DNA of 64,000 nucleotides from Massalongia carnosa (lineage: Eukaryota). The notes beneath the pieces were generated by a model that was given only the letters and a program-made list of their open reading frames with translations, was not told where the DNA came from and did no database searches. The stretch lies in the NCBI GenBank assembly GCA_965645245.1, contig OZ287067.1, positions 3,596,001 through 3,660,000 on the forward strand, in the 5' to 3' direction. Shown here one piece after another: positions 7,612-64,000 of the stretch. The position numbers and the translations under genes were made by a program. Position 1 is the first letter of the stretch. Each line of letters opens with the position of its first letter.

Positions 7612-7821
7612 GCTGGCGTTGTCATCGCAATACTACAGAGGGGTCGTGCTTCAAATTTAGCACTACAGTACTAGGCCAAAAGTCTGCGGCCCCGCACCCC
7701 ACCAACATTTCAATCATTCTATTCAATCAACAATCAACCACGTCACGATTGCTGAAATGTCTTGAAACTTTACATAATGATTACATACATACTAAACACG
7801 AATTCCCCCAAAAATTGATTT

Positions 7822-8367: not shown

Positions 8368-8545
8368 AATCTTGTGAGGGATAAAACGAGTTCACTTTCA
8401 ATAGCCTAGTTCTACACCAAAATCTTCAGACGAAGTCTAAAAGCTTTACTCGGGCGGAGTTCTATATAACCCCTGAAAAGTCGGTTCCTCGGCACATTAC
8501 CTAATCGATGCTAGTCTGATGTCAGGTGACCTCAGGACCCTGACA

Positions 8546-26953: not shown

Positions 26954-27250
26954 TATCAAGCTGGTTATCGCTTAGATATGCGTAAGCTTTCCAGCTTATT
27001 TGTTAGATAGGTTTACGTTCTAAAAGAGACTCATTTTGGATTTGATAAATTGATCTGGTTTATTTAGGATGGTTGTTGTTGATAGAAATCATCTCTAGCT
27101 AAATATCTATTTTACCTTATCCCATCACCTTTTGTGTGTACTCGGTAGCCAGCCATTCACTAAGTACAACACTTGCTAACCGAGTGACACTTCTATTAGT
27201 GGTGATATTGGCAGGCCACCTACCAATTAGTGTGGTCTAATCGGTTAACA
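26954..27250. repeat. Solo LTR (~297 bp) without TSD
   Basis: Near-identical to 46069-46365, ends TTAACA. Flanks ACAAA and GTTCC do not match. Confidence 0.8.
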
Positions 27251-30540: not shown

Positions 30541-33506
30541 ATTAATCGTGCTAAACCACTTTCGGAATAGAAGGGCATCCCTTAGTGCTTACCATCTCAA
30601 TGACGCATTGGGCTCAATGTCGTTTTTTTCACCATCTACCTACCATCTTTGACACGTAAACACCCCACACCATGCCTTCTGATTCTTATTATAAACTCGA
30701 AAATCGTATTGAAGAGGCCATTGACGCGCTTCATGATGGTTGATATAAGAATTGCACCAAGGCTGCGCGTGCATACGACGTGCCCATTCGTCAACTTCAA
30801 AGACGATGGAATAGGTCCAATTCCAAAAGCACCCGCCCCAGCACCAACAAAGCTCTTACGGAGGAGCAAGAGGAGGCAATTCGCGAGTATATTGATCGAT
30901 GTGACCGGTTCAATATGTGCGCTAGGCCAAAGATGATTGTGGGGGCGGCGAATTATTTGATTCGTACAGAGGATCGAAAGGTGGGGCATCAGTGGTTCAA
31001 TCGATTTCTTGAACGAAATCCACAGTACAACAAGCGCAAACAAAAGCCCCTGGCGACAGATCAAAAAAACAGTCACAGTCTCACAGATATGCGGGATTAT
31101 TTCCATAAATTGAAGGCTGCTATTGAGAACAAGGGCATTACCGACGTGGACGTTTGGAACATGGATGAAACAGGCTTTCGCATTGGCTGTGGGCGGGCTC
31201 AAATGGTGATTACCATGGACCCGAAAAAGCCTTTGCGAATGACGGACCCGGACAATCGTGATTATATCACGACGGTGGAGTGTATAAGTTCTGGAGGGGA
31301 GGTGATTCCCCCTTTGATCATCATTTCAGGGGTGCAGATTTTGCATAAATGGTGTCAGGAAAATGATCTACATGATGACATTCTCATTGGCACCAGCGAC
31401 AGTGGTTATTCAAATGATGATTTAGCTATGGACTGGTTGAATCACTTCATCGAGCATACGAGTAGCAAAAGGCAAGGTGCATGGCTACTTTTAATCATTG
31501 ACGGTTTTGGATCGCATATGACCATCCCATTTTTTGAACTAGCTACTGCCAACAACATCGTTTTGTTTCGATTACCAGCTCATTCCACTCACCTCACCCA
31601 GCCATTGGACGTAGGTGTTTTTCAACCGTTCAAACACTATCACACCGAGGCAATAGATCGGGCTGTCCGGTTGGGGGACTGTCAGTTTGGTAAGCTGGAA
31701 TTTTGTAAGGGGCTACGAGACCAGTAAGCTTATCACGAGCGACACTGATCTCGAAAGGGGAAATGCTCAGCGTGAGAGGAGGAAGATAGCTACTACGTGC
31801 TAGTCTCCGAGAGTATATGTGATCCAAAGAACTAATGGATGTGGAAGTGCTTGGACCAAGAGATCTCGTCCGAGACCCAAACGTAGGTTGTTCATAGAAT
31901 AAAGACTAATTGCTAACGAATACTACAAGATTCGTTCTGATATTTATCCTACTCACCCCAAGCCTATAGCCTTGGGAGCCTTGGAACCTTAGGAGCCTTG
32001 CAAGCCTTGGGAGTCTTGCGAGCATTACAGCCTTGCAATCCACATCCGACTTTATCGCATTACATCCAACCATCCCTCAGGATCCATCCACGAACTCGGC
32101 GTTCGCTGGATCATCTAGTCAGCCTCGAGCAGCCTTCTAGATCTTCCCTTGCAAGGTAGAACAATTCTACCCCCGGCTAGATCCCTCAATACATGCCTCA
32201 GGCTATGTAGCTTCATTTCGCCGTCACCACTACCTAGTGATGGAAGGTTACCTCCGACTGAATACCTCGCTACACTGCGGACCTGCCTCTAGACACAAGG
32301 TCTAGACAACGAGGTCATGTAGGTTCATTCAGCCGACATCACTACCAACGTAGTAATAAAGGTTGAAGCTGAAGTTTACACAGGGGAGCCTAGCTCAAGC
32401 TGCGTCCAGCGAGCCGTGCCTCCTGCTACCTCTCTTGAACCATCAAGAGATCCAGTAGCTCCGAGTAGGCCAGTAGATCCCATATAGAGTTCCTCGGCGT
32501 CTCCACAGGAGTCCGCCTTACACTCCATGGCAATCTACCACCACGGCCTCGACAGGTGTTTGATCTGTAAGTAGTCAAGAACGTGATAACAATAACTCCG
32601 AAGTTTCGGGGCAAGATGGCAGTGTGTCAGCCTCGACGGCTTATGCGACTTCGTACTACGGCATGGTCCACGCTAGTTAATCCCGCAACCGCCATAGGCG
32701 ATCACGTATCCCTTTAGCGCCATCCGTATTACAAATTTCTCGCTGCATTTCAGGGCTTCCGAAATGAAACGTTCAAACCATCCACCATCCGTCATGCGTT
32801 CAAATCAACCGGAATCGTACCGTTTGACCCAAACGTTGTCCTGGACAAAATTCGAGAAAAGGAGGCACGATTGAGGGAGTCAGTCATTCGAACTCCCTCC
32901 CCCCCCCGCTTCCATTGAATCAATGCACACCCCATGGGCCCGAATCGGTTGTTCGGTACGGTCGAAAGCTTCAGAGAGCCATTGCCAAAGCGGGACCCAA
33001 TGATAAACTGGAGGTTCAACAGGTTGAACGGTTCGTTCGCGGTTCGGTGGCATCCGCTCATGCTTTGGATTTGACCACTCGAGACCTTCATGCCATGCAG
33101 GAAGCAGCTTCATCACGTCAGAAACGAGCCGTTCTTGGTGGACAGGTGGCCTCTCAGGGTGAAATCATCAAGGTAAGTCAGTGTAGGGAGCTTTGTTCAA
33201 AAAGAAAGCAGAAGGAGGAGGAAAAGGCGAAACGGAAGAAGGCTAGGGAGGAGAAAGCGGCTGAGAAAAAAAAAGATTCTCAGCTGAATCAAATAGTATT
33301 TCTCATCAACGACACACCTTTGGTAGATTAGTCAATTCGATACGTATCAAAATTGAAACATTCACAATCGGGGTTGTTTTGATGATGTGGTGAATTGTTT
33401 GGTTGGTAGATGATGAAAAAAACGACATTGAGCCCAATGCGTCATTGAGATGGTAAGCACTAAGGGATGCCCTTCCATTCCGAAAGTGGTTTAGCACGAT
33501 TAACGG
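30541..33506 (+). mobile_element. pogo/Fot1-like DNA transposon interrupted by a solo LTR
   Basis: ~100-bp TIRs (TTAATCGTGCTAAACCACTTTCGGAAT...). Transposase from ATG 30672 with WNMDETGF, IIDGFGSH and QPLDVG, continuing at 32739-33331. Early TGA and a poly-C frameshift. Confidence 0.9.
31704..32733. repeat. Long solo LTR (1030 bp)
   Basis: TGTAA...TTACA with TSD AATTT (31699-703, 32734-38). The transposase frame resumes after removal. Confidence 0.85.
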
Positions 33507-33886: not shown

Positions 33887-36800
33887 ATGGCTTTGGTGCT
33901 CGCTGGCGCAGCGCCGCTGAAGCCTGAAATCAATCTTGCGCAAGCATTACATGACTACGAGACGATCCTTTCTGATGAAGACAGGAGCCAACTCCACTCT
34001 CAAGGATTGCCAGATGCTACAGCTGCTATCAATCTCACGTCTCTCATTGATAGAAAATGCAGCAGCCGCCGTAGTCAATGTATGGGTCCAAGGCTGATTA
34101 CATTCCTTGAATCAATTCAGCAATTCTCTCAGGTAGTTGATGTATTTATCAGCTCTAATCCTCACGTCGCGGCATTGGTGTGGGGAGGGGTGAAACTGGC
34201 TTTACTCGTAATACCTCTCCCCGGCTCAAGTATTAGATTTGACACTTGCAGGCTGCGAACAATGTTTCGTCTTACTTTGATCAGTTGTCAATCCTACTCA
34301 TGAATATAGGAAGGCAATGCCCTCGAATTCATGGATTTAGATCCTTGTATCCTTCAATAGGACTACAGAAAGCGCTCTATGACTATTACGCTGCCATTAT
34401 ACGGCTTTGTAAGCACGTAACGCTGTCTCTTCGAAAGCCAGGTACATACGCTTTCTGTTCTTCTTCGCAACTCCCTTGTCTATCTTTGACGCAGTCCAAG
34501 AATTGACGTGTTTCCAGTATATACACAGTTGGCAAAGGCACTGCTGGTCTCCTTCAAGGCGGAGTTCGGACCGTATGAAGGGGAAATTGCAAGATTATCT
34601 CAAGAAGTTCGAGAGGAAGCATCTCTGGCATCGAAGCAAGCTCAAAAGCAGGAAAACGAGCTCCAAGCTAAAGAACGTTCGGATGCTAGGAGGTATCGGG
34701 AAATCGTGGACAAATTCAGGAATGATTATCACAAAAGTAAGGAAGAGGAAAGACATTTGCGTTTGGAGATCGACCGCCGTAAATTAGAAGAAAAGAGATT
34801 GGAAGCTTTGAACGGTCTTTCGACTTATGACTATCAGAAGACGTACAGGCAGATTCGTAAAGAGTGCGTACCTGATACATCAATGTGGATATGTGAGAGC
34901 CCAGAATTTCATGCATGGATATCTGGAACTCTGAAAACACTTAGGTTTACTGGCAGGTGTAAGTGTATAATTACTCCTAGTGCCCAGCAATGCTTATGTG
35001 AAAATCAGTAGGATCGGGTAAATCGGTCACAAGGTTCAGTCCCTTGTTAGCTTTCACGATGAAGTTTTACTAATGAAGTCCAAGCGCTTGTGTGGCTGCA
35101 CATTTAATGGAGAAAGTATCGCCGAAAGATGTTACTGCCTTTTTTTTCTGTCGCTTCGATGAAACGGATTCTCTAAAAGCAAAGACAATCATTGGAAGTG
35201 TTGCCAGGCAATTAATGTGTGATTTGCCTGCAAAAGCGTTCCGCGCATTCAATCAGAAAAATATCGATGAAACAAGCATCATTAGCGCTCTTGAAGCTAT
35301 GTTGAGCCATACTCGCCAATACTTCATAGTGCTGGATGGCTTGGACGAATGTGAAGAAGCACAAGTCAAGGAGGTTGCTGAGATCTTCCACGGGCTTTTG
35401 CTTTCCCCCCATTTGCGTATAAACTTATTTTGGTCTAGTCGTCCAAACGTACTGAGTTGGCTGCCAGGAAGATTCCTGACCCTGCAGCATATCGATTTAG
35501 AATCCGTTGAGAATCAAAGCAGAGTCGCTCACGATATTCGTACATTCATCCGCGTCACACTCGAGGCGTGGCTAGAAGGCGAGACACCGGAACTGCAAAT
35601 CAATGATCCAACCCTGATAATAACGATTCGAGACTGTCTTGAAAAGGAAGCTCAGGGAATGTATGATATCCTTATGTCCTAAATAACAGTGTAGAGCTTA
35701 CCTCAAAAGGTTCTTATGGGTCAAATTTCAACTCCAAGAGTTGCGTGAGAAAAAATCGGATAGTCTGATAGTTGCTGCGTTGAGAAATCTTCCACGCGAT
35801 CTTCCGGAGACGTTTAAAAGAATTCTCTCCAAATATACCGAAGCTGACGACATTGATATTGGAAGGCAAATATTTCGCTGGGTCACTGTAGCGAAACGTC
35901 CTCTTATGGTCGAAGAACTTCGGGAAGCCATAGGGACCATACCACTACAAGAGGCATGGAATGATAATATATATATCAACAACATGAATAAAGCGGTGGC
36001 ATGTTGCGGTAATCTCGTCTTCATAGAAGAGGAACAGCAAACGGTACACTTTACGCATGGTAGCGTCAAACAGTATTTGCTTTCAAGAGCCGTCCAGGAT
36101 TCGCTGAGCAAATATCACATCGATATAAAAAAAGCCGATGAAGTTGCAGGTGCTATCTGTGTCACATATCTCAATTTCCCCGTGTTCAATAGGCAAATAA
36201 CGCATAATACCGGCAAAAGCATCACCACTAGCGGTATCACGTCAATGATCATAAAGAATAGCCTATCGTTTGGAAAATTCTCGAATAAAATTGCTCTTGA
36301 GTTACTGAGACGAGATGATAAGTCTGGCAAGTCAGTTCATCGTCTATTGGAGGAAGTAGCCGGTGATACCGAAGCTTGCCGCCAGGATATAATTCTCGGA
36401 CCTTACTCCTTTCGACCATACGCAAACCAATTCTGGCTTGAACACACTAAGCATGGAATGAGTCCTGGTTCTGGGAAGCTGTGGGGACTCTGGTCCAATT
36501 TGATAAGGGAAGCTAGTTGGCGTGACACTCTATCTAGCATGCCATGGACATTGGAGGACTGGAAGAAGCGCACTACTAAAGTCATACAATGGGTAGTAGA
36601 ACAGAACCACTGTTCGTTAGCTTGGCTGATCATAGGCCCTGACGTAAGGATTACACAACAGAATCTTCTAAATCTCGTCAAAGGCGCTGCAAAGAGAGGA
36701 CATGCACATTTGATAGAGATTAGTCTGGGCTCAGAATGTATTTCGCAATACATTCTAGATTCAGGATTACAATCAGCAGCTGGGGGTGGTCATTTAGATG

Positions 36801-38632
36801 TGGTGGAGAGGTTGCTTCAAGCGAAGGCTGACGTTAATGCTGCTGCTGCTGCTTTATCCGGTGGCAGGACTGCACTTCAAGCAGCAGCTGGAGGTGGTCA
36901 TTTAGATGTGGTGGAGAGGTTGCTTCAAGCGAAGGCTGACGTTAATGCTGCTGCTGCTGCTTTATCCGGTGGCAGGACTGCACTTCAAGCAGCAGCTGAA
37001 GGTGGTCATTTAGATGTGGTGGAGAGGTTGCTTCAAGCGAAGGCTGACGTTAATGCTGCTGCTGCTGCTTTATCCGGTGGCAGGACTGCACTTCAAGCAG
37101 CAGCTGGAAGTGGTCATTTAGATGTGGTGGAGAGGTTGCTTCAAGCGAAGGCTGACGTTAATGCTGCTGCTGCTAAAGCCAATGACAGGACTGCACTTCA
37201 AGCAGCAGCTGGAGGTGGTCATTTAGATGTGGTGGAGAGGTTGCTTCAAGCGAAGGCTGACGTTAATGCTGCTACTGCTGAATACTTTGGCAGAACTGCA
37301 CTTCAAGCAGCAGCTGAAGGTGGCCATCTAGATGTGGTGGAGAGGTTGCTTCAAGCGAAGGCTGACGTTAATGCTGCTGCACCTGAATACTATGGCAGAA
37401 CTGCAATTCAAGCAGCAGCTGAAGGTGGTCATTTAGATGTGGTGGAGAAGTTGCTTCAAGCGAAGGCTGACGTTAATGCTGCTGCTTCATACGATGGTAG
37501 GACTGCACTTCAAGCAGCAGCTGGAGGTGGTCATTTAGATGTGGTGGAGAGGTTGCTTCAAGCGAAGGCTGACGTTAATGCTGCTACTGCTGAATACTTT
37601 GGCAGGACTGCACTTCAAGCAGCAGCTGGAGGTGGTCATTTAGATGTGGTGGAGAGGTTGCTTCAAGCGAAGGCTGACGTTAATGCTGCTGCTGCTGCTG
37701 AATACGGTGGCAGGACTGCACTTCAAGCAGCAGCTGGAGGTGGTCATTTAGATGTGGTGGAGAGGTTGCTTCAAGCGAAGGCTGACGTTAATGCTGCTGC
37801 TGCTTTATCCGGTGGCAGGACTGCACTTCAAGCAGCAGCTGGAGGTGGTCATTTAGATGTGGTGGAGAGGTTGCTTCAAGCGAAGGCTGACGTTAATGCT
37901 GCTGCTGCTAAAGCCAATGGCAGGACTGCACTTCAAGCAGCAGCTGGAGGTGGTCATTTAGATGTGGTGGAGAGGTTGCTTCAAGCGAAGGCTGACGTTA
38001 ATGCTGCTACTGCTGAATACTTTGGCAGAACTGCACTTCAAGCAGCAGCTGGAGGTGGTCATTTAGATGTGGTGGAGAGGTTGCTTCAAGCGAAGGCTGA
38101 CGTTAATGCTGCTGCTGCTGCTTTATCTGGTGGCAGGACTGCACTTCAAGCAGCAGCTGAAGGTGGTCATTTAGATGTGGTGGAGAAGTTGCTTCAAGCG
38201 AAGGCTGACGTTAATGCTGCTGCTGCTGCTTTATCCGGTGGCAGGACTGCACTTCAAGCAGCAGCTGGAGGTGGTCATTTAGATGTGGTGGAGAGGTTGC
38301 TTCAAGCGAAGGCTGACGTTAATGCTGCTGCTAAAGCCAATGGCAGGGCTGCACTTCAAGCAGCAGCTGGAGGTGGTCATTTAGATGTGGTGGAGAGGTT
38401 GCTTCAAGCGAAGGCTGACGTTAATGCTGCTGCTGCTTCATCCGGTGGCAGGACTGCACTTCAAGCAGCAGCTGAAGATGGTCATTTAGATGTGGTGGAG
38501 AGATTGCTTCAAGCGAAGGCTGACGTTAATGCTGCTGCTGCTCTTAAGCATGGCCGGACTGCACTTCAAGCAGCAGCTCGAGGTGGTCATTTAAAAGTGG
38601 TAGAGAGACTGCGTGCTGCAGGTGCGAAATAG
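33887..38632 (+). CDS. NACHT-ankyrin NLR with helical N-terminal domain (Goodbye-like), apparently intact
   Basis: Five introns (~34208-34250, 34442-34517, 34959-35008, 35033-35084, 35661-35709) join the ORFs in frame. Walker A GRLGSGKS, AFFFCRFD, Walker B IVLDGLDEC, MFLWV, LPRDLPETF, HGSVKQYL, then 18 ANK repeats. Confidence 0.9.
36764..38632 (+). repeat. 18 tandem ~99-105-bp ankyrin-coding repeats of very high identity
   Basis: Recurrent GGTGGTCATTTAGATGTGGTGGAGAGGTTGCTTCAAGCGAAGGCTGACGTTAATGCT(GCT)n. Confidence 0.97.
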
Positions 38633-47760: not shown

Positions 47761-50700
47761 CATCACTCCTACGCATAGCATAGAGATTAGTCGCAATAAT
47801 CTGAATTATTTCATTCATAGAAGTTCTGTACTATCCAGAGACTTCTGGCACTCTGCCACCTATTTTCTGTGCATTGGGTCCATCATTCTCTATCCATCCC
47901 TCCTATTTTAAACAGGTTATGAGCCCGGTTAGCCTATAGTGCTGCTGAGTGATTTTCTTGTGTCAGTTTCGAGGTTATACATAACGAGATGGCGGACCAA
48001 CGCGACTCCACAGACCCTAATACACCAGCAAGTATGACCAGCCCTTCCCCTCCTTCCTCTTCATCTTCTGGCCCCGATGGGCAGTATACAAAAGCGGTAA
48101 GGAAAGGGGATATAAGGGTAGAGCCCAAGCTAGGTGCCGATAATTATTTAACCTGGGCGGAAGAGATGTGGATTCAGCTTAAATCTATGAGAGTCCTCAA
48201 GTTAGTAGAAGGAAAAACCCCTCAACCAGATACAGTAACCCGACCAAAAGACTTTGACGAATGGGACCACGATGATACCAACGCATTGAAATGGATACGG
48301 GCCAACTGTGAGAAAAGCCAATTGACTCACCTTCGAAACAAAACAACATCCAAAGCCGCCTGGGACGCTCTAAAGAAGGTCCATGGAGTCCACGCCAGAG
48401 GAAGAATCAACTATTTATTGAAGCGATTCTATACCTACAAGGCTGGATCCAGCGACTCCATCGATGATATAGCAGGGGCCCTTGAGACCTTACGAGTCCA
48501 GATTGCGGACATAAAATCGGAGTTTGAGCCTCACGATGCGTTGATGGCCATAGCCCTGATGAGTGCCGTGGAGGACCCTGCATTTGATACAACAAAGCTT
48601 TTATTGGAACGGGAATCCGAGCTTAGCTTGGAAGCAACTAAGGAGGCCTTGAAAGCGACGGAGCAGCGACTAAAATTCGAAAAGGATGACTCTGTCGAGA
48701 ATGCCCATCGAGCGAATGCAAAAAAGGGTAAAGGGCCACCAAAGAAGTGCGACCATTGCGGGAAACTTGGACATATCCGAATCTATTGCTGGAGCTGGCT
48801 CGATGACACCGACGAAGGCCAGGAATGGGAACGCACCCATCCTGAGCAACGGAGGAAACCGAAGTCCAAATCCGAAACATCAAAACCTGAACCCAAATTG
48901 AAATCACGGAGTACCACTAGGCCTACCTCCACGAGCAATACCAGTTCTTCCAACTTCTGTGGCCGAAGCAAAGGCACTGCCCGGCCGGCCAATGAAGAGG
49001 ACTTTGACGATGGTGCCAGTGAGGATGAAGGGTGGATGGCCGTGGATATAAAAGAGGAGGTTATTGATGAGAAAGTTGAAAAATTAGAAGAAATTTTTGA
49101 AGTCCGTGAAGGTGCAGAGGATAAAACTAGTGGCTGGATGCTAGACTCTGGTGCTTCACGTCATATGACCTATATGCGAAATATGTTCACGAAATTCGAA
49201 TACCACCGCACCCCAATTCGAATTGCTAATGACCAGAGGCTTTGGAGCAAGGGTAAGGGTGATATTTCTGTGGATATCGATGGTGTTGCCATTCACATGA
49301 CCGACATTTTATACGTACCCCAACTGGATGCAAATCTACTGTCTATTTCGGCATTAAACAAAAAGGGGTTAAATGTCTTGTTTCATGGAAAAGGTGTGGA
49401 GATCCTGCCGAAGGGTACCTCAGTGGCCAGCGGTTTTCTTAGAGGACGTACGTATTTCTTGCGGACCTCTCAGGTTGCCTTACAGGCATTCGCGGAAATC
49501 AGCGAAAATATCGAGGAAGCCAACCCCGAAGATCCTAAATCGTCGAACAAGCCTACAATAACAGCAAGAGATTGCACGCGAGAAAAATCGGTATCACCTG
49601 TAGGTCAAGAAAGGCCAGAAGAGCGTGAATACAGTCTGTGGCACGCCCGAATGGGTCACCCCAGCCCAAAACAACTCCAGGATTTATACCGCTATGCGTC
49701 TGGAATAACTTCCTTTTCACTAACTGTTACACAACTTTCATGTTTTATCTGCAACTTTACTAAGTTAACTCGAGTGGTCAGCCACGAGCCATTTTCGAAA
49801 ATAGTCCGGCCATTGGCCAGGATTCACACGGATATCTGGGGCCCCTATCGTACGGCTAGCCTCGGAAGCCATTCGGACTTTATTTCATTGATTGATGACT
49901 TTACACGGAAGTCCTGGCTAATTCTCCTTAAAAACCGACGAACCATTTATGGAGCTATCAAAGAATGGATGAATGTCGTTGAAAGAGAAAAGAATCAGCA
50001 GGTAATCAAATTCCGATGCGACAATGCTAAGGAGTACAAGAAATTCATGGAACTTATTCGACCCGATGGCATTCGCGCTGAACCCACTACGCCGTATACT
50101 CCAGAACAGAATGGAGTTGCGGAACGATATAACCGAACAATCGTTCAAATGATTAGGTCCATGCTCGTATGGGCGAAATGCCTCATTCCTTCTGGGGAGA
50201 AGCAGCAATGACTGCTAACTATCTCAGAAACCTCCTCCCTACCGCCAAAGTTAACCAGTCACCCGAAGAAAAATGGACGGAGCAAAACCGGACATCAGCC
50301 ATCTACGCACCTTTGGCTGCTTGGTTCACGTTCATATCCCGAAGGAAAATCGATCCAAGCTGGATAAAGTATCCTGGCAAGGAATTTTCGTCGGATATCA
50401 CTCTTCAAACCAATATCGCATTTATAATCCAAAAACGAGCAAGGTAGAATGGCATACTTCAATTAAGTTCCTAGAAAATACACCCGGCGGGATCATTCTA
50501 GGAGGAGCAAAACCAAATGAGGATCGCGAGTTATTCGTACAGTCCGGCGTCACTAATGATGCTGACGACAATAGTACTGATAATGAGGATGACACAAATA
50601 AACCTGATTCTGATCAAGTGGGAGCGCCTAAGGGTGTTCAAAATCAGGTTAGAGACGAAAATTCAGGAGGGGATTCAGGATCAAATCCTGAAAATCAGCA

Positions 50701-53067
50701 AGTTATCACTGATTCATCCCCTAATGCTTATCAGCGACCAGGTGGTTCAACGTTCCGGTCTCAAAATCATAATCGAAACTCTTCCACTCCTACGAACCCT
50801 TCCACTTCCGTATCTTCATCAACCATCAAGTCTTCTTCTTCCACTATACCAAAACCTCTGCTAATAAGCCTACTCGTCGATCAACGCGGGAGCGAAAGCC
50901 ATTCGATAAGTACGGCTTCGATAAAGCACACGGGCATATAGCTCGGAAAGCAGACATGGACGCAAACCTAGACCAGAGTGATCACAAGCAAGTTTATCAA
51001 ACCCCCAAGCTATCCGAACCCCGCTCCTATAAAGAAGCCATCAAATGCATTGACTGGCGTAAATGGCTAATAGCAATAGACGAGGAGCTTTGTGCCCTCA
51101 TTGCTAATGGCACATGGGAGTATTGTAAACGGCCGCATGGCAGAAATATCGTGACGTCCAAATGGGTATTCAAGATAAAATATACGGTCAACAATTTCAT
51201 AGACCGCTACAAGGCCCGCCTAGTTGCACGAGGATATACACAAATATTCGGCCTAGATTACGAGGAGACCTTTTCACCCACACTCCATCAGGAATCTTTG
51301 CGGATGCTTTTGTCGCTCGCAGCATATTTCGGGTTTGAAATCGAGCAAATGGATGTTCCGAATGCCTATCTTAAAGCGGATCTAGAAGAAATTATTTACA
51401 TGGAGATGCCCGAAGGCCTCACGCCACCACCAGGCTATGAAGACTGCGTATTACGACTACGGAAGGGCCTTTACGGATTGAAGCAATCCGGACGAGAGTG
51501 GAACAAAAGAATATCTAAATTCCTACGTTCTATTGGCTATAAGACCCTCACAGGCGATAATTGCGTCTTTGTCAACCAAACCTCGCACGTAATCATCGCG
51601 TTGTACGTAGATGATTTACTAATTTTCTCAAAGAGCAAGACAGCGATCAAAGATGTCAAAAAACTATTTAAATCGTGAGTACAAAATGAAAGACCTAGGG
51701 CCAGCACAGTACATGTTGGGTATTCGCATTCGACGTGAAGGAAAACGGGTTTTCCTCGATCAATCCAGAACTTCCTTCGCGATTACCAGATGGATAACGC
51801 CAATCCAGTACTAACACCATTAGACGGGAAAGAAAGCCTTACACCTGCAACGGCTGACGAGCCCAGAACCAATCAATTAGAATATCAGAAGCGTATTGGC
51901 AGTGTCATGTACGCTATGGTAAGCACGAGGCCAGACCTCGTTTTGCAGTTGGAAAACTCAGTCAGTACACGCATGATCCAGCCACGAGGCATCGAACAGC
52001 CCTTGACCGAGTCCTCAAATATCTCAAAGGGACAGCCGACCTAGCCCTCGTATACGACCATAACCGTAACGGTGATCTCATTAGCTTTGCGGAATGCCGC
52101 ATACGGCGATGACGTCAATGACCGCAAGTCAACCTACGGGCATACAATGTTATTGGGCAATGGGGCAGTGATTGGGCAAGCAAGAAGCAAGGATCAGTGG
52201 TTACGTCAACAATGGAGGCGGAATATTCATCCATGTGCCAAGCAGGCAAGGATATCGTATGGGTGACAAGGTGGATGAATGAATTGGGATTTGGCAAGCA
52301 TATAAACTTCCCGATCAAGCTGAACGGTGATAATCAGGGAACCCTCGACTTGATCAGAAACCCCGAGCATCATAGCCGATCAAAACACATAGACATCCAA
52401 CTCCATTACCTTCGCGAAGTCATTAACGATGGCTATGCTTCAACTAGTCACGTATCCACACACGAGATGATAGCTGATATATTCACCAAGCCCTTGGGAG
52501 CAACCATGTTCAAAGAACTACGAGCCAAGCTTGGTGTGCAAGAGGTGGAATAAGAAAAGGGGAACACAGGCTCAGTGGGAGCTAATGGACCAAATCAGAT
52601 TGCACAAAACAGGTCCAAACCAAATTCAAATTGCATACAGAAGAGGTGAATTGACATAGATTGATAAAGGGTTTAGGAGTTAGGGATAGAGGTATTTTTT
52701 CTGTTAAAATTTCTCAGCTGACTTTGCAGTAGGAGTGTTACGAATGCCAAGCCAGCTAGATCATATCTAACGTAATATGCGAATGCCCTCGCGTATTTTA
52801 CTGACATGGGAATAGTTACATCTGAGAATTTCTGGTATCTTCGATGCTTAGAAATTCAGGTCTACAGACGTTCGAGGAGAATCTCGAATGTTCTGTGATC
52901 ATATATGTATATAACATCACTCCTACGCATAGCTTAGAGATCAGTCGCAATAATCTGAATTATTTCATTCATAGAAGTTCTGTACTATCCAGAGACTTCT
53001 GGCACTCTGCCACCTATTTTCTGTGCATTGGTCCATCATTCTCTATCCATCCCTCCTATTTTAAACA
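47761..53067 (+). mobile_element. Ty1/Copia retrotransposon with truncated 5' LTR and frameshifted gag-pol (47989-52553)
   Basis: 5' LTR remnant ends 47914, then PBS GGTTATGAGCCC. CDHCGKLGH, WMLDSGAS, integrase, YVDD and RNase H. 3' LTR 52736-53067. Confidence 0.92.
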
Positions 53068-54674: not shown

Positions 54675-57095
54675 CTATGTGAAAAACTTTTCTAGGTACT
54701 GGGAAACCATATTACGCCGCCCCTGTGGCCGAGTCCCAGTCTTGTCGGCCGATGCGGACGCGATCTGCTTCCCGTCTGGCGAGAATGCCAGCGCCCGAAC
54801 ATAACCCGATTGACCCTTGAGGATGTTGCGCGAAGCCCCCGTGGCCGAGTCCCAGAGCCTGATCGTCATGTCGCCCGATGCAGACGCGATCTGCTTCCCA
54901 TCTAGCGAGAATGCCACCGCCCGAATATAACCCGAATGACCCTTGAGGATGTTGCGCGAAGCCCCTGTGGCCGAGTCCCAGAGCCTGATCGTCATGTCGC
55001 TCGATGCGGACGCGATCTGCTTCCCGTCTGGCGAGAATGCCACCGCCCGAACATAACGCGAATGACCCTTGAGGATGTTGCGCGAAGCCCCTGTGGCCGA
55101 GTCCCAGAGCCTGATCGTCATGTCGCCCGATGCGGACGCGATCTGCTTCCCGTCTGGCGAGAATGCCACCGCCCAAACATAACCCGAATGACCCTTGAGG
55201 ATGTTGCGCGAAGCCCCTGTGGCCGAGTCCCAGAGCCTGATCGTCATGTCGCCCGATGCAGACGCGCTCTGCTTCCCGTCTGGCGAGAATGCCACCGCCC
55301 GAACATAACGCGAATGACCCTTGAGGATGTTGCGCGAAGCCCCCGTGGCCGAGTCCCAGAGCCTGATCGTCATGTCACCCGATGCGGACGCGATCTGCTT
55401 CCCGTCTGGCGAGAATGCCACCGCCCAAACACAACCCGAATGACCCTTGAGGATGTTGCGCGAAGCCCCCGTGGCCGAGTCCCAGAGCCTGATCGTCATG
55501 TCGTCCGATGCGGACGCGATCTGCTTCCCGTCTGGTGAGAATGCCACCGCCTCAACATAACCTGAATGACCCTTGAGGATGTTGCGCGAAGCCCCCGTGG
55601 CCGAGTCCCAGAGCCTGATCGTCATGTCGTCCGATGCGGACGCGATCTGCTTCCCGTCTGGTGAGAATGCCACCGCCTCAACATAACCTGAATGACCCTT
55701 GAGGATGCTTGCCATATGCCAATAGATTTGAGTCGCTGGTTCTGATTTTGAAAGTGCTACTGCTTCCTTAGAAGCAGGCAAAATATTTTCAGCAAGCACG
55801 CCCGTAGAGCTATGCGTCTCGTAGAATGAAATTGAGTCTTGAGTGCTCCAACTAGCGGAGGGCTCAGGATCTGAACAGTTCAGCGGTGTTGACATTGGCT
55901 TTGTAACATTGATTTTTCTGCAAAGATATCAGCAACACTACAACATTATTATTATAAGATGATATAATATTTTTCTGTCTCCATCCATAAGAAGTAATAC
56001 CCCGGAGTGTCGGGAGCCGCGTCTTCTATAAGAGAATCCAACCACGAATGTTGTAAACATTCATTAGCCCTTGGACGATCCTCAGACTTTGACGCCATTG
56101 AGCTTTTTAAGAAGTCGCATCCCTGTCCGCTTACTTTGTTTGCAAGCAAGACATTCAAAGGAAATTCAAAGTGCCCGCAACATACTGACCTAGACGGCGC
56201 GGGTCTTTGAAAAGAATCTCGCCGGTGAGTATGAAGAATGTTATAACACTTAGAGACCAGATATCAACAGCGTTTGTATACGAATCATTTGATTCGTCGT
56301 TCGATTGAATAAAGCCGAGTACTTCTGGTGCCATAAAAGCAGGTGTGCCTCTTTGGGTTCTTAATGCTGTAAGTCCCTCTGTTGCCCGCTTGCTGACTCC
56401 AAAGTCTGCGACTTGACCCACCAATCTGGGCCTTTGTCCACAACTAGTATGTTCTGTATTACTTAGAGTATTAGCTAATTTTCAGATTATATTGATGCAT
56501 GTAGCTAGGCTTACAGCTGGCTTTAAATCTCTGTGAGCGAACCCTTTATCATGCATGAAATGTAAGCCTTCGAGGATCTGAAAAACGATATGCTGTCCTT
56601 CCTTCTCTGGTAGCGGTGAACCGAGGTACTTATGCAAATCACCGTATGAAAAGTACTCCATAGTAATAAATATGCTGTCACTATCATCATACCAGCCGAA
56701 GGACTTAACAAAGCATCGTTCGTACTAACTTGACGTTAGCGTAAGGTGTGGAAAAGTAGGTTGTGAAAGAATAACAGCGGTAGACTTACATTGCTGTGAG
56801 AAAACAGAGCAATAGCTTCCAATTCTCTGTAATAATCGCTGGACTCAAGTTTTCGGATCTTCTTTACAGCTCGTACTTTCCTTTCACTGTTCCCTTGAAT
56901 ACACCGCTCTAACCAGACGATCCCGAAACTGCCGCTGCCTAGCATACTTTCTCTCATCCATTTTTCCTCCATGCGAACTTTTCTTTGTCTTGCCGTACTT
57001 CCAGAAACGTACTGGACGTGTTGCGTATATTCCGGATCAGAGTGGAATTGAGTCTCGAGTTTTGAAACCTGCACAAGGTCTGAAATAGGTGGCAT
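54675..57095 (-). pseudogene. Ser/Thr protein kinase fused to 8 WD40 repeats (frameshifted)
   Basis: ATG 57095. LGSGSFG, AVKKI, RELEA, MEY, HRDLKPA|NIL, ADFG, GTPAFMAPE and VDIWSL. Intron 55918-56000 joins the kinase exon in frame to the WD40 exon. 1-nt deletions near 56415 and 56170, and a small deletion in the last repeat. Confidence 0.85.
54720..55710 (-). repeat. Eight 126-bp WD40-coding repeats of very high identity
   Basis: LKGHSxxVxAVAFSPDGKQIASASxDMTIRLWDSATGASRNI x8. Confidence 0.97.
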
Positions 57096-57650
57096 GGTAG
57101 CGATCTGACATCTGCTCTTGTGCGGACAGGAGGCGCTTGGTCTGTAGATCATCAGCTCGAACTCACGCGCAAATCGTAGGATACCGGCAGTCACCGATCA
57201 CAACTTACAATCACAACCCGCAAAAGACGGTCAGTCATTCATGTACCATAGTGTAGTATGTGAACTATGCCTGACCTACATCCCGAAGCCTGAGCACTGC
57301 TCCGCATCAGCGACGGGGTCGTCGTCAGAGGCGCCGGATTCAACGGAGATGACAGGGCCCGGTTATTCTGACTGGTAGAGCGTGAAGGAGATCTCTCAAA
57401 CACCCCTTTATGATATAGGTAGCTATAAGCTCGTTCTCATGATGGCTACGGAAAACGAAATCTAGCCTTATGCCTTCTGCCTTAGAACTCAGCCCCGCCA
57501 TCACATCCCCAAGCTCAAGCTTTACCCTATCTAGCTAGCGCAGACACCGCCTCTATCGAGTGTTCCGCCTAATGGAATACAACAACGTCTCTCTTCCCCA
57601 TCATTTATCGCTTTTTTTGTGTCCAGGATCCAAGTACACCGTCGTGACTC

Positions 57651-59285
57651 ATGGCAGAAGTAGTCGGGATAACCTTTGCTGTTTTTGCAACAGCCGACCT
57701 ATGTATCAAGTGAGTTGCTCGTCCCCATTCTCTCTCTGTTGCACTGCCATCTGACACAATCCAGATATGGTAAGATTCTTGTCGAGACATGCGCAACCTT
57801 CAAGGGCGCAGAGGCCGAGATAAATGAGCGAGTACTCCGCGTAGAAATCACTGGAAACGCACAGACTTACAACTAGACTTTATCAAGCGGATATGGAACG
57901 GCCTAGACGAGGAACATCAATCAATTCAGGATCGGATTTACCAGGTACTAATCAAAAAATTAAGCCTCATAACCTCTAAAGTTGTTAAACTGTCCAAAAG
58001 GAGATGCGATAATCAAGCAACAAAGCGCTAGGTTATAGAAGTAAATAAATTGAAATATGTCTTGATGAATCTATTGAGGATTTGACCTCATGGCAGAAGT
58101 TGTTCGATCCATCTTGGTTTTTAATCCTGAAGGTCTCAAGTCCCTTGATTGATCAGGAGCTGAGCAGAAATGGGTCGGCGATATCTTCGTTCACCGGCAT
58201 GCATAGCCTTAGAGACGCTCTGAGGGAGCAGCCTCTTCAGAAAGTCTCCGTTTTCCTTCCAAAAGATGGAATTGAGACGGCGCGGATGCGCGAGATTCCT
58301 TTCGCATCTGCGAAGTGTATGCAGAGAGCTGGTTCGGACAAATGGTTCGTGTTAGACCGCATCCCATGCGATCCGGAAGTCGACATAGGCTTGATGACGA
58401 GAGATGTAAGGGAGCTTGCAAGAAAACTCTCTTCTGTGGACCCTCTTACATTCGGCATACTTCAGTGCCGCGGCGTAGTTCGAGTTATAGAACCCAGCAG
58501 CGGCAGATCATCCTCTTTTGATTTCATATTCCGAATACCCAGAGAGCTCAGCAATGAGCCTAGAAGTCTTCGGAGTTATCTCTCCTCATATTTCGATCAT
58601 ACACTTACCGACCGTTTCCAGCTTGCAAAACAACTCGCCAATTCTATCAGCTATGTCCATACGCTTGGCTTTGTGCACAAGAACGTCCGGCCAGAGACTA
58701 TTCTTGGGTTTCAAACTAATGAATCTGAGTTTGGCATGTTCTTCCTTGTCGGTTTCGAGAAGATGCGCACGGCAGATGGTCGAACAAGGCGGTCAGGTGA
58801 CTCTACTTAGGAGAAGAATCTCTACCGTCACCCACATCGTCAGGGATTAAACCCTGAGGAAACCTGTACTATGCAACATGACATCTACAGCCTAGGTGTC
58901 TGTCTTTTGGAGGTTGGGTTGTGGGAGTCATTCGTATCACATGCGGATGGTGTGACAGCCCCTCTTCCTGCCGCAGCACTCGGCATTACTTCGAGCCCCG
59001 AACTCAAACAGCCAGCTCTGATTAAAGAGCGCCTGATCGCTGTTGCGAAACGCGATCTATCCAAGCGGATGGGAGAGCGATACGAGGAAGTTGTGATAAA
59101 CTGTCTGACTTGCCTAGATCAAGACAATGCAGATTTTGGTGATCAGAGCGAGTTCGAAGACCAGGATGGTGTCTTAGTGGGTGTGAAATACATTGATAAG
59201 GTTTATCAATTATACAGCTTTTACGGAAAGCTCGTGCTTACAATGTCTTTAGATACTTATGAAGCTGAACGAAATTCTAGTATAA
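57651..59285 (+). pseudogene. HeLo-like domain + pseudokinase protein (MLKL-like architecture)
   Basis: MAEVVGITFAVFATADLCIK|YGKILVE... hydrophobic N-terminal helix and helical domain. Kinase-like lobe with HKNVRPETIL (no HRD), VGFE (no DFG), YRHP, HDIYSLGVCLLEVGLW and end YIDK|ILMKLNEILV*. TAG at ~58029 and 58808, plus frameshifts. Confidence 0.8.
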
Positions 59286-60701
59286 AGTTGTTCAATGGCT
59301 TAACATGATCGCTGAATTCACGGGCTTGATTGTGCGTTTCTGATCCGACTCTTCTTTCTGATGTGATCGTAATATCCTTGTTGGCGTGACGATGGTGTGA
59401 TGATAAGATTGGAACTTCTCGATCTGCGATGTATTGTTAATCATCATTCATCAGTTCACGTCTTAAGAAGTTGCATCTAAAATGTGCGTTGCCAGCCTCC
59501 GCAAGACTTGGCCAAGCCTGACTGTAAAATGACAGTCTTCGTCGAATAGGAGTCCTTCCTTGTATGTTCATCAACGTAGTTGCCTTCTCGCTTGTCGTAA
59601 TCCCGACGGAGGTCTTGATGTACTTGAGCATTTCATCACTCGAGTCCCTCATTGAGCTTTGGGATGAATGAGTTCTACAGAACGGGCTGAAGGGAGCCGA
59701 GGTGTGTTTTAGCCGGCTTTCCGACCTATGATAAAGATACTGTGTGGTTCCGCCGTGAGAAGCGACTTGAATAACGTTTGCTTTCTCGTCATGGGGAGGA
59801 TTATGCTCGATGCTAAATGGTGGACAAAGTTCCTGAGGTAGTGGATGATGACGATGATGGGGAAACGGCTTTGCTGTTCGGGGAGAGGTAGAAGAGAAGG
59901 AGAAAGCGGAGGAAGAAGATGGTTTTGAAGGATACTGGACTTGCACTGTCAAGACTTTCGCCTGATTTAAACTGATCAGAGCAACGAATGCTAGAGGAAA
60001 ATCACTTGAGCTCTCAGCTTAAAACGTCGGCCTCGTCAAACTTCCGAAGCTAATTCTGACTTGGCATTAAAAACTGCATGTAGAGATTCTGGAAGCTGCA
60101 GTCCTCTCTGCGCAAGAGGTGTTATCAAACAAGGAGAACTGTTATATCTGTCCTTGTGACTTTAAGATAAGCCGAGCGTAGTCAAGCAATATCTAACTCC
60201 ATTGAAATTAGATCTGTTCCTGCTTGAGTCTCATAACCATTGTGGCTAGCCACGAGCAGAAACCTCTATGTGGTGCTGACTAGTAACACCTTCTATGATT
60301 CTTAGAAACTCGCTGAAGTGGCCAATATCTGCTCACCAGGAATCAAACGGTGCTAAAAGGGGGGCAATTCAGGTGCTGAATTGACGACGAATTGGGGGGT
60401 GAATCAGGACTCAGACAGCAATATAACGTCCCGAGCCACCCAGACGGGTGAATCCGAGCCCCTACTCCAAGCCTATAACGCTGCCTTTTCGGTCATCTAG
60501 TCACCTGTTACACTCCAGTCATCAAGGGCCTAGAAGTGGACCAAAGGAGAGGACACGGGGGGAGGACTGGGGGAGCATATATGATGAAGAGATATAAAAT
60601 AAACGATCGAGTTTGGGTGGATAAAGAACGTCGAAAACCTAGGTATTCACTTATCATTCTATTCATCAAATCCTTTTCATTCGGTCAAAACGGAGGCCTA
60701 C

Positions 60702-63700
60702 TGTTACGCTAACAGCCTAGATGTCATGGGTCCCAGCCTGGCATAAAGCTGAGATGGAAAGGGGATCACGGGAGCACGCGAGGCTAGCGCGATACTCGGT
60801 GCAGATATTTTGATTCTTTTCTTCTTTGTAGATAAATTTTGGTTTAATAGCGGTTGATTAGAATCGACGACAGCTTCCTTACACAATTTATCTACCTACC
60901 TATTAGTATTCTTTCTTCCAGAACTTTCAGTAGGGACGAGGTCCCGTTCCAGCAACTTTCTTTCAGATAGGGTGAAAACCCGTTCCAGTAACTTTCCAGA
61001 CTGATCGTTTGTGCGAATCCAAATCGATCCAAATTCCAGAAATTCCAGATCTTTTAGTATCAGGGAATCAAGCTTTCCCACTTTCAAAATTCAGTCATGA
61101 ACTCAAAAACCCCCATGACGGCGAGAAAGGCCGCAGCTTCTTCCGCAGAGGCCCAGACCGGCCCAGCATTTAACACCCGCGCTCGTTCCGTCTCCCGTCA
61201 TTCGTCTCGCTCAGATAGCAGCATGCCGGGAACGTTTGAAGACTCCGAATTATCTCAGAACAAACAGATTAAAGAAACCACGGAGGGGACGTGGGAAAAA
61301 ACCCCAAGAGCAGGACGTGAAAAAGAAAAAGAGTTTTTCCAGAAGATCGATGTCTCCGATCACCCATATTACAAGAAGGATGCCGCAGAGCATCCGTCCC
61401 ACGTTGCAGCACACAATTTGAAGGAATTGCAGAGCATCTTACGAGACGAGAAAGAAGGACCCCGATGGTATGACTTCCTCGCGAGAGCGCTCGAATACGA
61501 CAAGACCCTATTCAACAATACATCTCCATGCAGGGCGACCTGGAGATGCTTGCCGAGGCCAAAAAGATCAACAGAAGTTACAAACAACTACATGAACGTC
61601 TCATCGCGGAAAAAGACGATGCCGAACGAGAGGCCCTTCTCGCGCAAGAAGAACTATCGCATAGAGACATCGAATTGGAGGCAATGACTATAGCAAAAGA
61701 GAGATTAAAGAACGACAGAGACTCCCTGATCCGCCAGTTAGCGGAAACACGGGAAACACCACGTCACCAACGAGAAGATACCGTTACTACCCAAAGCACC
61801 AACGCCAATCCCCAGAATTGGCGACCCCGTAGTATAAACCCTAGCAAGCCACTGAAAGGTGAGGACTCGGAGGAGTATAGCCCTTGGGCGTACTCCGTCC
61901 GCAACAAACTGAAGACAGACGCACCCCTCTATGCCAATGAGAGCGAAAAAGTCGGTTACGCGCTGTCTCAAATGGAAGCGCCGATCTTCGGGGCTATGCA
62001 CTTTTGGGTAGCGGATATGGGAGACTCACTATCGGCCGACGCTTTTTTCGAAGAGATAGAGCATTACATGGGCATTCACCTCCAGAGCCGCGACGCCAAG
62101 AAAGAGCTCCTCACCGTCACCATGAATGGGGGCGAAAGCGTCAGCGAGTACTATCGCCGAATCTTCAAGCTATGGCAGAAAGCCAAAACTCCCATTGACG
62201 AGCGAATTGAGAAGTTCCTCGTGACGTTAAAGCCTAGCATCTCCAACTCTCTTATGTGTTCAGTCTTTACTGATTTCCGCCCTTTACTTGACGAAGCACG
62301 AAGAATCGAAGACCGCCGCAAAGATGTGGCGCACCACTTTCCTCCTCCCGATAAACCAGCCGCAACGAAGAACTCCGGCCAACGAAGCAACTTCTCCGGC
62401 GGACAATCCTCAAACCAGTCCTCCGGCGGAAAGTCCGCCTCATCCTCCATCAATCAAACCAGCTCCAAGAAATCTGATGATCGGCCGAATGCGAAGCTGA
62501 TGCCAACGATAGTCAAACCGGCCGGTTAGGTAGGCACCTGGTATGATCCAGACCCAAACCCAAAGAAGCTGAAGGATGACGAGCGCGAGTCCCTCTCCCG
62601 TCAACGCTGATGCTGGGCATGCAGGGGATCAGGATATCGAGGAAACGATATCAATTGTCCTCAATACAGGGACAAGAACTTGAGCACCATGGGGACAGTA
62701 GAAACAGATTCGGGAGCGGAATCTGAGGCGGGAAAAGCCTAGTCCTTGATCGAAATCGCGATCAAGGGCGTACAAACAAGGAGGTTGTTAATGGGAACGG
62801 TGACACTGAAACGAAAATGGTTAGGGTCTCTACTTGTGCTGTCCGCGATACTGAAAGGAAAATCGAGGGCAAGCATTCATTTTTTAAAACTAGCATAGCT
62901 GGAATTAAAACCCGTTTACTTATCGATAATGGAAGTGAAGCTGAACTCGTTGACGAATCCTTTGTGCGTAAACACAAATTGAACACCTTCAAACTGGATA
63001 AGAAGTCGAAACTTACTTTGCGAAATGGAGAGGTAGTACAGCTCCTCTCGAAGGCCGCCTTGATCGACGTGAAAATCGGAGATCATGAAGAGCAAGTCTT
63101 ATGTTATTTGGCAAAACTAGAAGCGTATGCAGTCATTTTAGGGGATGGATGGCTGCAAACGCACAACCCAATGATCAGTTGGAAAGAGAACGATGAAGTT
63201 CAACTCGTCAGATTGTCTTGAAAAGGGATGTCTAACACGAGGGATAACTTGCACCGAATTCGCTGTGAGAAGCAAGGTTTAAGAATAGGATCGAGCCTAA
63301 GGAAGATATCGAAGTTCTTCCAGTCAACGCAAAAAACTTCTTTCGAAGGGCCAGAAAGAAGGATCACGATGGCTATCTATGGATTCCTCGAAAAACAAAG
63401 AAGGCCTTCTGCGCAACTACCACCGGAGCAGTGACATCAGGAGATTACGACAAGTTCATGAAGGGAAAACCGGAATACACCCGAGAGGAATTGTTGAAGA
63501 GAGTCCCAGCAGCTTATCACAGCGTAATAGATGTTTCATGAAGCTCAAGGCGGATGAACTGCCTGAACACCGGAAGGAGGATCATCAGATAAATCTCGAA
63601 GCGGGAAAAGAAGCTCCGTACGTAAGGAACTATAAACCCATGTCAGAACAAGAATTGGAAGCGGTTAAGAAATACATCGACGAGCATCTGGGAAAAGGCT

Positions 63701-64000
63701 TCATCCATCCAAGTTTGTCAAGCGCAGCAGCCCCCGTTCTTCTAGTTAGAAAACCAGGGGGTGGTTTAAGATTTTGCGTAGATTATAGAGCCTTAAACTC
63801 CATCACGATCAAGAACAGGTACCCAATACCGTTGATAAATGAAACTTTGGGAAAACTATCACAAGCCAAGAAGTTCACAAAACCGGATGTGATTACCGCT
63901 TTCAATCGTATGAGAATGAAGGAAGGCCACGAATGGCTCACGGCTTTCAATTCTAGATATGGTCGGTTCGAATATCTGGTAATGCCATTCGGTCTCTGCA
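60702..64000 (+). mobile_element. Degenerate Ty3/Gypsy retrotransposon related to the 8373-17853 element, running off the window
   Basis: Putative LTR ending CCTTACA (60883) then CAAT, as in the first element. Gag 61097-62741 shares GPAFNTRARS. LLIDNGSE protease and RT follow, with many stops and frameshifts. Confidence 0.88.

Follow-up and report, generated by a model that had tools for sequence, protein, structure and literature searches.

The window analysed here is a 64,000-nucleotide stretch of the Massalongia carnosa genome (assembly GCA_965645245.1, contig OZ287067.1, positions 3,596,001 to 3,660,000 of the forward strand). Near its right end lie two divergently transcribed genes, one for a Ser/Thr protein kinase fused to WD40 repeats and one for a protein whose predicted architecture, a helical bundle followed by a brace and a pseudokinase, resembles that of MLKL. 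With moderate confidence, we read the pair as a decayed copy of a module conserved in filamentous ascomycetes, in which a CAMK-like kinase with a sensor tail would act on an MLKL-like executor by a mechanism of the RIPK3/MLKL type. The copy in the window is dead, so the value of the finding lies in the family and not in the locus.

A sequence-only reading of this DNA had described two head-to-head genes with starts 555 bp apart, and this arrangement was confirmed. The kinase-WD40 gene begins with an ATG at 57095 on the minus strand and the MLKL-like gene with an ATG at 57651 on the plus strand, and the 555 bp between the two start codons (57096-57650) presumably serve as a shared promoter. The window DNA is fungal, with short spliceosomal introns.

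Conservation of the gene pair

The survey of gene pairing started from the alignment of the MLKL-like family, which provided 80 metagenome loci with flanking sequence. These collapsed to 64 clusters at 95% nucleotide identity, and the 44 cluster representatives with at least 1000 bp upstream formed the informative set, in which members of the kinase family were located by tblastn with five homologues. The kinase gene lay head-to-head with the MLKL-like gene at 28 of the 44 loci, with gaps of 370-1270 bp (one case, L049, was weak), and directly downstream on the same strand at another 2; at 5 loci it was found 1.7-8.7 kb away. The two genes are therefore adjacent at 30 of 44 informative non-redundant loci, and the pairing is far beyond chance. 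The MLKL-like gene is usually divergent from the kinase gene, with about 0.4-0.9 kb of shared intergenic DNA. Kinase-family genes numbered 33 in the 213 kb within 3 kb of an MLKL-like gene and 3 in the 265 kb beyond, a 14-fold difference in density. When the open reading frames (ORFs) in the flanks were clustered all against all, the kinase was the only recurrent neighbour family (37 of 52 representatives), and no third conserved gene was recovered from these 52 representatives. In an annotated lichen-fungus assembly, a single contig of 16,472 bp carries both proteins under neighbouring locus tags, Q9168_006070 and Q9168_006071. The pair is thus conserved beyond the window, as the linkage check proposed in the sequence-only reading had asked.

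At loci where the MLKL-like gene was solitary, its neighbours were ordinary. At one of these, L080 (5208-7250, plus strand), the solitary gene was followed 2.3 kb downstream by a gene encoding NB-ARC and TPR_10 domains, which may be an alternative partner of the NOD-like receptor (NLR) type. Orientation differed among loci L001, L002 and L008, from three assemblies, which share the same MLKL-like gene at 95% nucleotide identity or more: the kinase-WD40 gene (about 7100-9350) is opposite-strand in L001 and same-strand in L002 and L008, through an inversion at the locus or a discrepancy between assemblies. At L012 a second protein-kinase ORF (6047-6826, minus strand) was situated directly past the partner kinase.

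The kinase-WD40 gene and its family

The kinase-WD40 gene (54675-57095, minus strand) was delineated from translations, Pfam matches and homologues as four exons that encode a CAMK-like Ser/Thr kinase, a linker and about 8 WD40 repeats. Exon 1 (56790-57095) contains a conserved N-terminal extension (MPPISDLVQVSKLE...), the GSGSFG loop and VRAVKK, and is followed by a GTAAGT donor at 56789. Exon 2 (56515-56724), which terminates in HRDLKPA, is flanked by introns at 56725-56789 and 56454-56514. Exon 3 (56001-56453) encodes NILVVDKGPDWWVK and, across a break in the frame, ADFG, APE and the end of the kinase domain; it has lost single nucleotides at two sites. Exon 4 (54675-55917) encodes the linker of about 80 residues and then the WD40 repeats. 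The splice that joins the kinase to the repeats, read from the sequence with a donor at about 56000 and an acceptor at 55918, is in frame.

Translation recovered all of the catalytic motifs in the window kinase pieces (GSGSFG, VRAVKK, HRDLKPA, ADFG and APE), and Pfam Pkinase matched three of these pieces with E values of 0.0028, 2.5e-14 (exon 2) and 4.9e-14. The Pfam WD40 model matched 8 stretches within 54678-55925 (E 1e-98), and Tandem Repeats Finder placed the array at 54739-55712 on the minus strand, with a 126-bp period, 7.7 copies and 95% matches. The exon pieces gave no Pfam match to NACHT, NB-ARC or any other nucleotide-binding oligomerization domain (NOD). Pfam, Tandem Repeats Finder and translation agree with the earlier description of a full-motif kinase that continues in frame into 8 near-identical WD40 repeats and is free of NACHT and NB-ARC. 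The differences among the translated repeats were concentrated at the GH-S-x-x-V-x-A and S-x-D positions, which we take to be the known hypervariable positions of receptors of the HET-E/HET-D type.

The homologues P0122 and P0125 shared 66-83% identity with the window gene across the N-terminal exon. In the intact partner kinase P0153, the Pkinase match (E 3.3e-45) covered positions 4-263 of 263. The catalytic motifs were near-invariant in the alignment of partner kinases, and intact members shared an N-terminal extension, conserved and about 45 residues long. Among the best 60 structural-database matches listed for P0153, Rad53, CaMKI and Chk2 ranked highest (E 3e-25 to 1e-22), and no RIPK appeared. 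The intact homologues P0125, P0139 and P0130 had no NOD-type Pfam domain. The tails of the kinases varied across loci, with WD40 repeats in many (L058, L059 and others), ankyrin repeats at L064, TPR_10 at L026 and KA1 at L070. The suggested co-occurrence of the MLKL-like family with kinase-repeat fusions was accordingly observed at the surveyed loci for WD40, ankyrin (ANK) and TPR tails.

The MLKL-like gene and its family

The MLKL-like gene occupies 57651-59200 on the plus strand (the end is approximate) and was defined from translations, comparison with the relative P0001 and the family alignment; its product would comprise a four-helix bundle, a brace and a pseudokinase. Exon 1 (57651-57709) is separated by an intron (57710-57764) from exon 2 (57765-59200), and a short last exon, uncertain in position, probably lies near 59374-59400. 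A first search for the family returned more than 229 proteins, and a second, with a divergent member as the query, returned at least 1393. Members are about 450-560 residues long and occur in Lecanoromycetes, Leotiomycetes, Eurotiomycetes (including Aspergillus and Talaromyces), Dothideomycetes and Sordariomycetes; the nearest relatives are mostly from lichen-forming and other filamentous ascomycetes.

The pseudokinase domain (58250-59200, plus strand) was recognised by its HKNVRPE catalytic loop, GFE in place of DFG, an activation-loop Thr and the motif WEKNLYRHPxRQG. The window translation reads FVHKNVRPE and LVGFE at the HRD and DFG sites. In column counts over 67 members, the His and Lys of HKN were invariant, the position of the catalytic Asp in HRD was Asn in 56 members and Asp in none, and the DFG position read GFE in 64 and had Asp in none. 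The sequence-only reading had stated that the partner lacks HRD and DFG, and the absence of either Asp from all 67 members extends that statement to the family. The activation-loop position (T368 in P0008 numbering) was Thr in 66 of the 67 and Ser in the other. Judged by these residues, the second protein is a pseudokinase whose activation loop is conserved. Pfam Pkinase matched the C-terminal half of full-length relatives weakly, below threshold (E 3.5e-6 to 7.4e-4). The Pfam model DUF7580 weakly matched 5 of 68 family members (best E 0.0016), and this match was precomputed on the database member P0169.

The N-terminal part of the protein, a hydrophobic helix and predicted four-helix bundle (57651-58144, plus strand), was placed from AlphaFold2 models of relatives and from hydropathy. 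In the window, the hydrophobic N-terminal stretch is MAEVVGITFAVFATADLCIK; mean hydropathy at residues 2-20 was 0.93-1.64 in all 12 of 12 sequences, compared with -0.24 to -0.46 for the remainder. The N-terminal 180 residues of the family had no Pfam match. In a language-model search with residues 1-150, the nearest cluster was 93% PF14479 HeLo (score 0.93, 168 of 256 features), a result that we treat as a lead only.

Predicted structure

A full-length AlphaFold2 model was generated for the intact relative P0008 from a 26-sequence alignment. In this model, helices at residues 3-32, 39-68, 71-99 and 109-150 are followed by short brace-like helices and then by a kinase fold, and the activation loop (362-398) has a predicted local distance difference test score (pLDDT) below 50. 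When the model was compared with the PDB by Foldseek, the first match was full-length mouse MLKL (4BTF; 487 aligned columns, E 2.7e-7). This was the sole match spanning both domains among the top 50; the others covered kinase or pseudokinase domains only, over 291-371 columns. The models indicate that the overall architecture of the second protein is MLKL-like, with bundle, brace and kinase fold predicted in one chain.

The N-terminal domain was also modelled separately (pLDDT 77.9), from the first 180 residues of a metagenome copy that lacks introns, with an alignment of 68 sequences. Aligned by VIA-align with the executioner domain of human MLKL (6ZZ1, 6ZVO and 6D74), this model gave Z values of 9.1-9.3 with a root-mean-square deviation (rmsd) of 2.8-3.3 A over 113-116 residues. 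Comparison with plant coiled-coil (CC) domains and the N-terminus of AtMLKL3 gave Z values of 8.4-11.3. According to the guidance of VIA-align, values in this range are background for helical bundles. Neither HET-s nor mammalian MLKL appeared in the top 50 of a representative-wide structural search with the N-terminal model. Homology of the bundle to the HeLo and MLKL four-helix-bundle domains is plausible but unproven. A complex prediction for residues 3-343 of the kinase P0153 with residues 150-531 of the pseudokinase P0154, for which alignments were not used, returned a score of 0.00 and counts neither way.

Decay of the window copies

In this assembly both window genes are pseudogenes: three deletions break the frame of the kinase gene, and the MLKL-like gene has two frameshifts and two stops. 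With such lesions in both genes, the window instance of the module is dead and unable to work. The lesions had been mentioned in the sequence-only reading and are real in the assembly, since the breaks were seen against the intact relative P0001 (96% identity over a 253-aa query, and the reference for the plus-strand gene), against the WD40 units and against the contigs of four public sequencing runs (X1, X2, X3 and X5, from three studies) aligned to the region.

In the kinase gene (minus strand), one nucleotide is missing at 56411-56412, between VK and (I)ADFG, and the extra base is present in X3, X5 and part of X1 and X2. A second nucleotide is missing at 56171-56172 in a short A/T run (YVAGTL / FPLNVLL); X2, X3 and X5 have the base, and X1 has the window form. 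The third lesion, a 10-nt deletion at 54739-54740 in the last WD40 repeat, was recognised by repeat-unit comparison, and contigs of X1, X2 and X5 whose match stops at 54739 run on into the missing letters. This deletion shifts the frame, so that the kinase ORF extends to a TAG at 54675-54677.

In the MLKL-like gene (plus strand), one A is gone from an A-run at 57844-57845 (VE/NHWKRT), and the extra A is present in all four runs. A TAG at 58029-58031 stands where P0001 has Trp, and the frame breaks again within 58060-58070, near 58066 (KLKYVL / CLDES, where P0001 has IKK). From the sequence, we infer that this second frameshift arose by loss of about 16 nt between direct repeats of short length; an X5 contig has 225 letters around it, compared with 209 in the window. 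The second stop, a TAG at 58808-58810, replaces the Trp of WEKNLYRHP, which is kept in 65 of 66 family members. Both stops are TGG-to-TAG changes. The X2 contig equals the window sequence across 57930-58086, and so has the TAG at 58029 and the neighbouring deletion.

At least some of the lesions are real alleles, because X1 has the lesion at 56171 and the X2 contig is identical over 57930-58086. For the single A missing at 57844, an assembly error is conceivable, since the site is a run of A and none of the four runs has the loss. That such errors account for every frameshift was also considered, but the intact 1282-aa retrotransposon ORF and other long ORFs of the window speak against pervasive indel errors, and X1 and an X2 contig each share lesions with the window. 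Repeat-induced point mutation was rejected as a general cause of the decay, as there was no excess of sites with T or A in the window and C or G in the others; for X1, T>C and A>G differences numbered 46, versus 53 for C>T and G>A. The two stops are, even so, of the TGG-to-TAG kind. An in-frame 3-nt insertion (AAC) relative to window position 58993 was present in all four runs and corresponds to the extra residue of P0001 (ITLNSPEL vs ITSSPEL).

Proposed mechanism and alternative explanations

By analogy with RIPK3 and MLKL, the repeat tail of the kinase (WD40, ANK or TPR) would bind a trigger, and the kinase would then phosphorylate the pseudokinase, with the near-invariant activation-loop Thr (T368) as the candidate site. 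The four-helix bundle would be freed, membranes would be damaged and the cell would be killed. The likeness to the animal system resides in a putative executor with an N-terminal four-helix bundle, a brace, a catalytically dead kinase domain and a flexible activation loop, and in a separate active Ser/Thr kinase as its dedicated partner. The two systems differ in that no sequence-level relation to MLKL was detected by Pfam or by a profile search of PDB sequences, and in that the fungal kinase is CAMK-like, has its sensor repeats fused directly to it and is encoded head-to-head with its partner. The MLKL mechanism used for this comparison is that given in a review (PMC12881547).

Several results weigh against a RIPK3/MLKL-type module. 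The full-length P0008 model is of middling confidence only (mean pLDDT 66), and its match to 4BTF has an E value within about 3-fold of the kinase-only matches and template-modelling (TM) scores of just 0.35/0.42. A Foldseek search of the PDB with the N-terminal model alone returned nothing at E<=0.001, and in VIA-align unrelated bundles, such as Cbl four-helix domains and designed proteins, outscored MLKL (Z 11.5-12.3). The Pfam models PF14479 HeLo, PF17111 Helo_like_N and PF17107 SesA matched none of 68 family members at E<=10; HeLo-type models likewise found no match in five full-length relatives at E<=1, and a profile of the N-terminal domain gave only chance-level matches among PDB sequences (E 0.46 and above). 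The partner kinase, judged by sequence, is CAMK-like and not RIPK-like, and many partner kinases carry tails with no recognisable repeat, some loci having long tails that Pfam does not match. At 9 of the 44 informative loci the MLKL-like gene occurred without the kinase, in some cases with 10 kb of flank on each side, which indicates that the kinase is not obligatory.

Parts of the earlier interpretation therefore stand and parts do not. For the proposed HeLo-type N-terminus, the hydrophobic helix (12 of 12 sequences) and the modelled helical bundle were found, but a Pfam HeLo-type match was not. The structure search that had been suggested as a check placed full-length MLKL at the top and returned the kinase fold, while the isolated bundle matched unrelated four-helix bundles better. 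The label RIPK3/MLKL-like suits the predicted layout of the executor, which is that of MLKL, but not the kinase, which is CAMK-like and has no RIPK among its listed matches. We accordingly hold the RIPK3/MLKL analogy as a supported working model and not as membership, because a Pfam HeLo match is lacking, the bundle is non-specific and the kinase is CAMK-like.

The same observations were weighed under three other explanations. The pair might be a non-lethal signalling unit in which the pseudokinase is an allosteric activator, scaffold or localisation subunit, as STRAD is for LKB1 and JH2 for JH1, and the bundle is a coiled-coil adaptor. Conserved linkage would suit any functional partnership of this kind, the fit of the bundle to many unrelated bundles equals or exceeds its fit to MLKL, the 68 members lack a HeLo match and the closest CAMK-like kinases are ordinary signalling enzymes. 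Such a unit would nevertheless leave unaccounted for the best whole-protein structural match being MLKL, the conserved hydrophobic N-terminal helix and the HeLo cluster nearest in the language-model search. The kinase tails also belong to the WD40/ANK/TPR classes found in fungal immune receptors, with 95%-identical repeats here, and the two genes sit in an island rich in transposons and NLR genes and are easily lost, a pattern that in our judgement is typical of conflict genes and not of housekeeping signalling. We regard the signalling unit as unlikely, although it is the likeliest of the three alternatives. An improbable reading is that the logic is reversed or guard-like, with the MLKL-like protein killing by default or on another cue and the kinase restraining it through binding or inhibitory phosphorylation, or that the locus is of an allorecognition (het-like) or addiction type. 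Tight head-to-head linkage with patchy distribution is also typical of incompatibility or addiction pairs, and solitary MLKL-like genes persist without the kinase, one of them 2.3 kb from the NB-ARC-TPR gene at L080. Loss of an antidote kinase alone should be lethal, yet both genes have decayed in the window and solitary executors appear intact; variable, sensor-type kinase tails also better suit an activating receptor.

We give almost no credence to the explanation that the adjacency in the window is a relic or coincidence in transposon-rich junk, involving two dead genes only. Both genes are indeed pseudogenes here amid retrotransposon-filled surroundings, but the pairing recurs on many contigs, at 30 of 44 informative loci, the density of kinase genes rises 14-fold near the MLKL-like gene and both families are otherwise well conserved. 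A sensor-tailed kinase acting on an MLKL-like executor remains the reading that we favour. Its broader form, that filamentous fungi have an NLR-independent, phosphorylation-triggered, necroptosis-like pathway in which kinases with hypervariable tails sense non-self and activate a linked MLKL-like executioner, is one that we advance tentatively. If it is true, the logic by which a kinase activates MLKL predates animals or arose twice.

Relation to known systems

Among the described fungal systems, HET-S, HELLP and HELLF with their NLR partners (NWD2, PNT1 and FNT1) share with the present pair a two-gene cluster in which a repeat-bearing sensor is encoded beside a putative membrane-targeting protein that has a helical bundle and a hydrophobic first helix; the present pair would likewise belong to the biology of fungal non-self recognition and cell death. 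Those pairs signal by amyloid templating from the NLR, whereas here there is no NOD and the proposed link is that of a kinase acting on a pseudokinase; in addition, the Pfam HeLo and Helo_like_N models do not match the present family. The HET-E/HET-D/HET-R (HNWD) receptors resemble the window gene in having a C-terminal array of highly similar WD40 repeats (here 7.7 copies, 95% identical), but the window gene lacks NACHT and HET domains and its N-terminal module is a kinase.

To our knowledge, no genomically linked activating kinase with sensor repeats has been described for plant MLKLs. These proteins (AtMLKL1-3 and the Pm13 type) provide a precedent outside animals for a HeLo-type bundle, brace and pseudokinase in one protein. 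The N-terminal domain of AtMLKL3 (6KA4, residues 1-130) aligned with our N-terminal model at Z 8.8 and rmsd 3.4 over 123 residues, which is within the helical-bundle background.

A further parallel is with fungal gasdermin clusters, in which, according to PMC12881547, a protease fused to WD40, TPR or ANK repeats, and not always with a NOD, is encoded beside the pore-forming executor that it would activate. An enzyme-repeat fusion beside an executor is common to both designs; here the enzyme is a kinase and not a protease, the executor is MLKL-like, and activation would be by reversible phosphorylation and not by cleavage. The pair would extend the design of an enzyme with sensor repeats beside an executor from proteases and gasdermins to kinases. 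HELL-pseudokinase fusions are mentioned in the same 2025 review, so the executor architecture had already been noticed. No description of a linked sensor-kinase partner cluster was found in the full-text literature, which included excerpts of a 2023 iScience review and a 2022 PLoS Comput Biol paper and for which subscription journals and supplements were outside the coverage. PMC12881547 raises the extent to which fungal death pathways resemble necroptosis as a question still to be answered. Fungal helical-bundle death proteins have so far been known as activated by NLR amyloid templating or as built into NLRs. The conserved kinase/MLKL-like pair offers a candidate for the missing kinase step that can be put to a direct test, and many intact natural pairs, the metagenome pair L054 among them, and a defined candidate phospho-site are available.

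Surroundings of the pair in the window

Transposons and genes of immune types abound in the window; among them are gypsy and copia elements, a transposase of the Tc5/pogo type, a FunK1 kinase and NLR-like genes. An intact gypsy-type polyprotein ORF of 1282 aa (8549-12394, minus strand) contains RVT_1, RNase H, integrase and chromo-like SH3 domains and looks like a young retrotransposon. Copia-type sequences (gag, integrase, RVT_2) and further reverse-transcriptase fragments were found at 47953-51675 (+), 23380-25363 (-), 29011-30087 (+) and 63301-63999 (+), and an ORF for a DDE transposase of the Tc5/pogo type (DDE_1, HTH_Tnp_Tc5) at 30744-31724 (+).

Two ORFs on the plus strand resemble parts of NLR-like genes. 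The first (19193-21022; 610 aa) contains DUF7779 and TPR_10 repeats and looks like the C-terminal part of an NB-ARC-TPR gene, and the second (35687-38629; 981 aa) contains a GPIID-type winged helix and about 17 ankyrin repeats and looks like the sensor part of a NACHT-ANK gene. A fragment of a fungal protein kinase gene of the FunK1 type (PF17667) is located at 27240-28055 on the minus strand.

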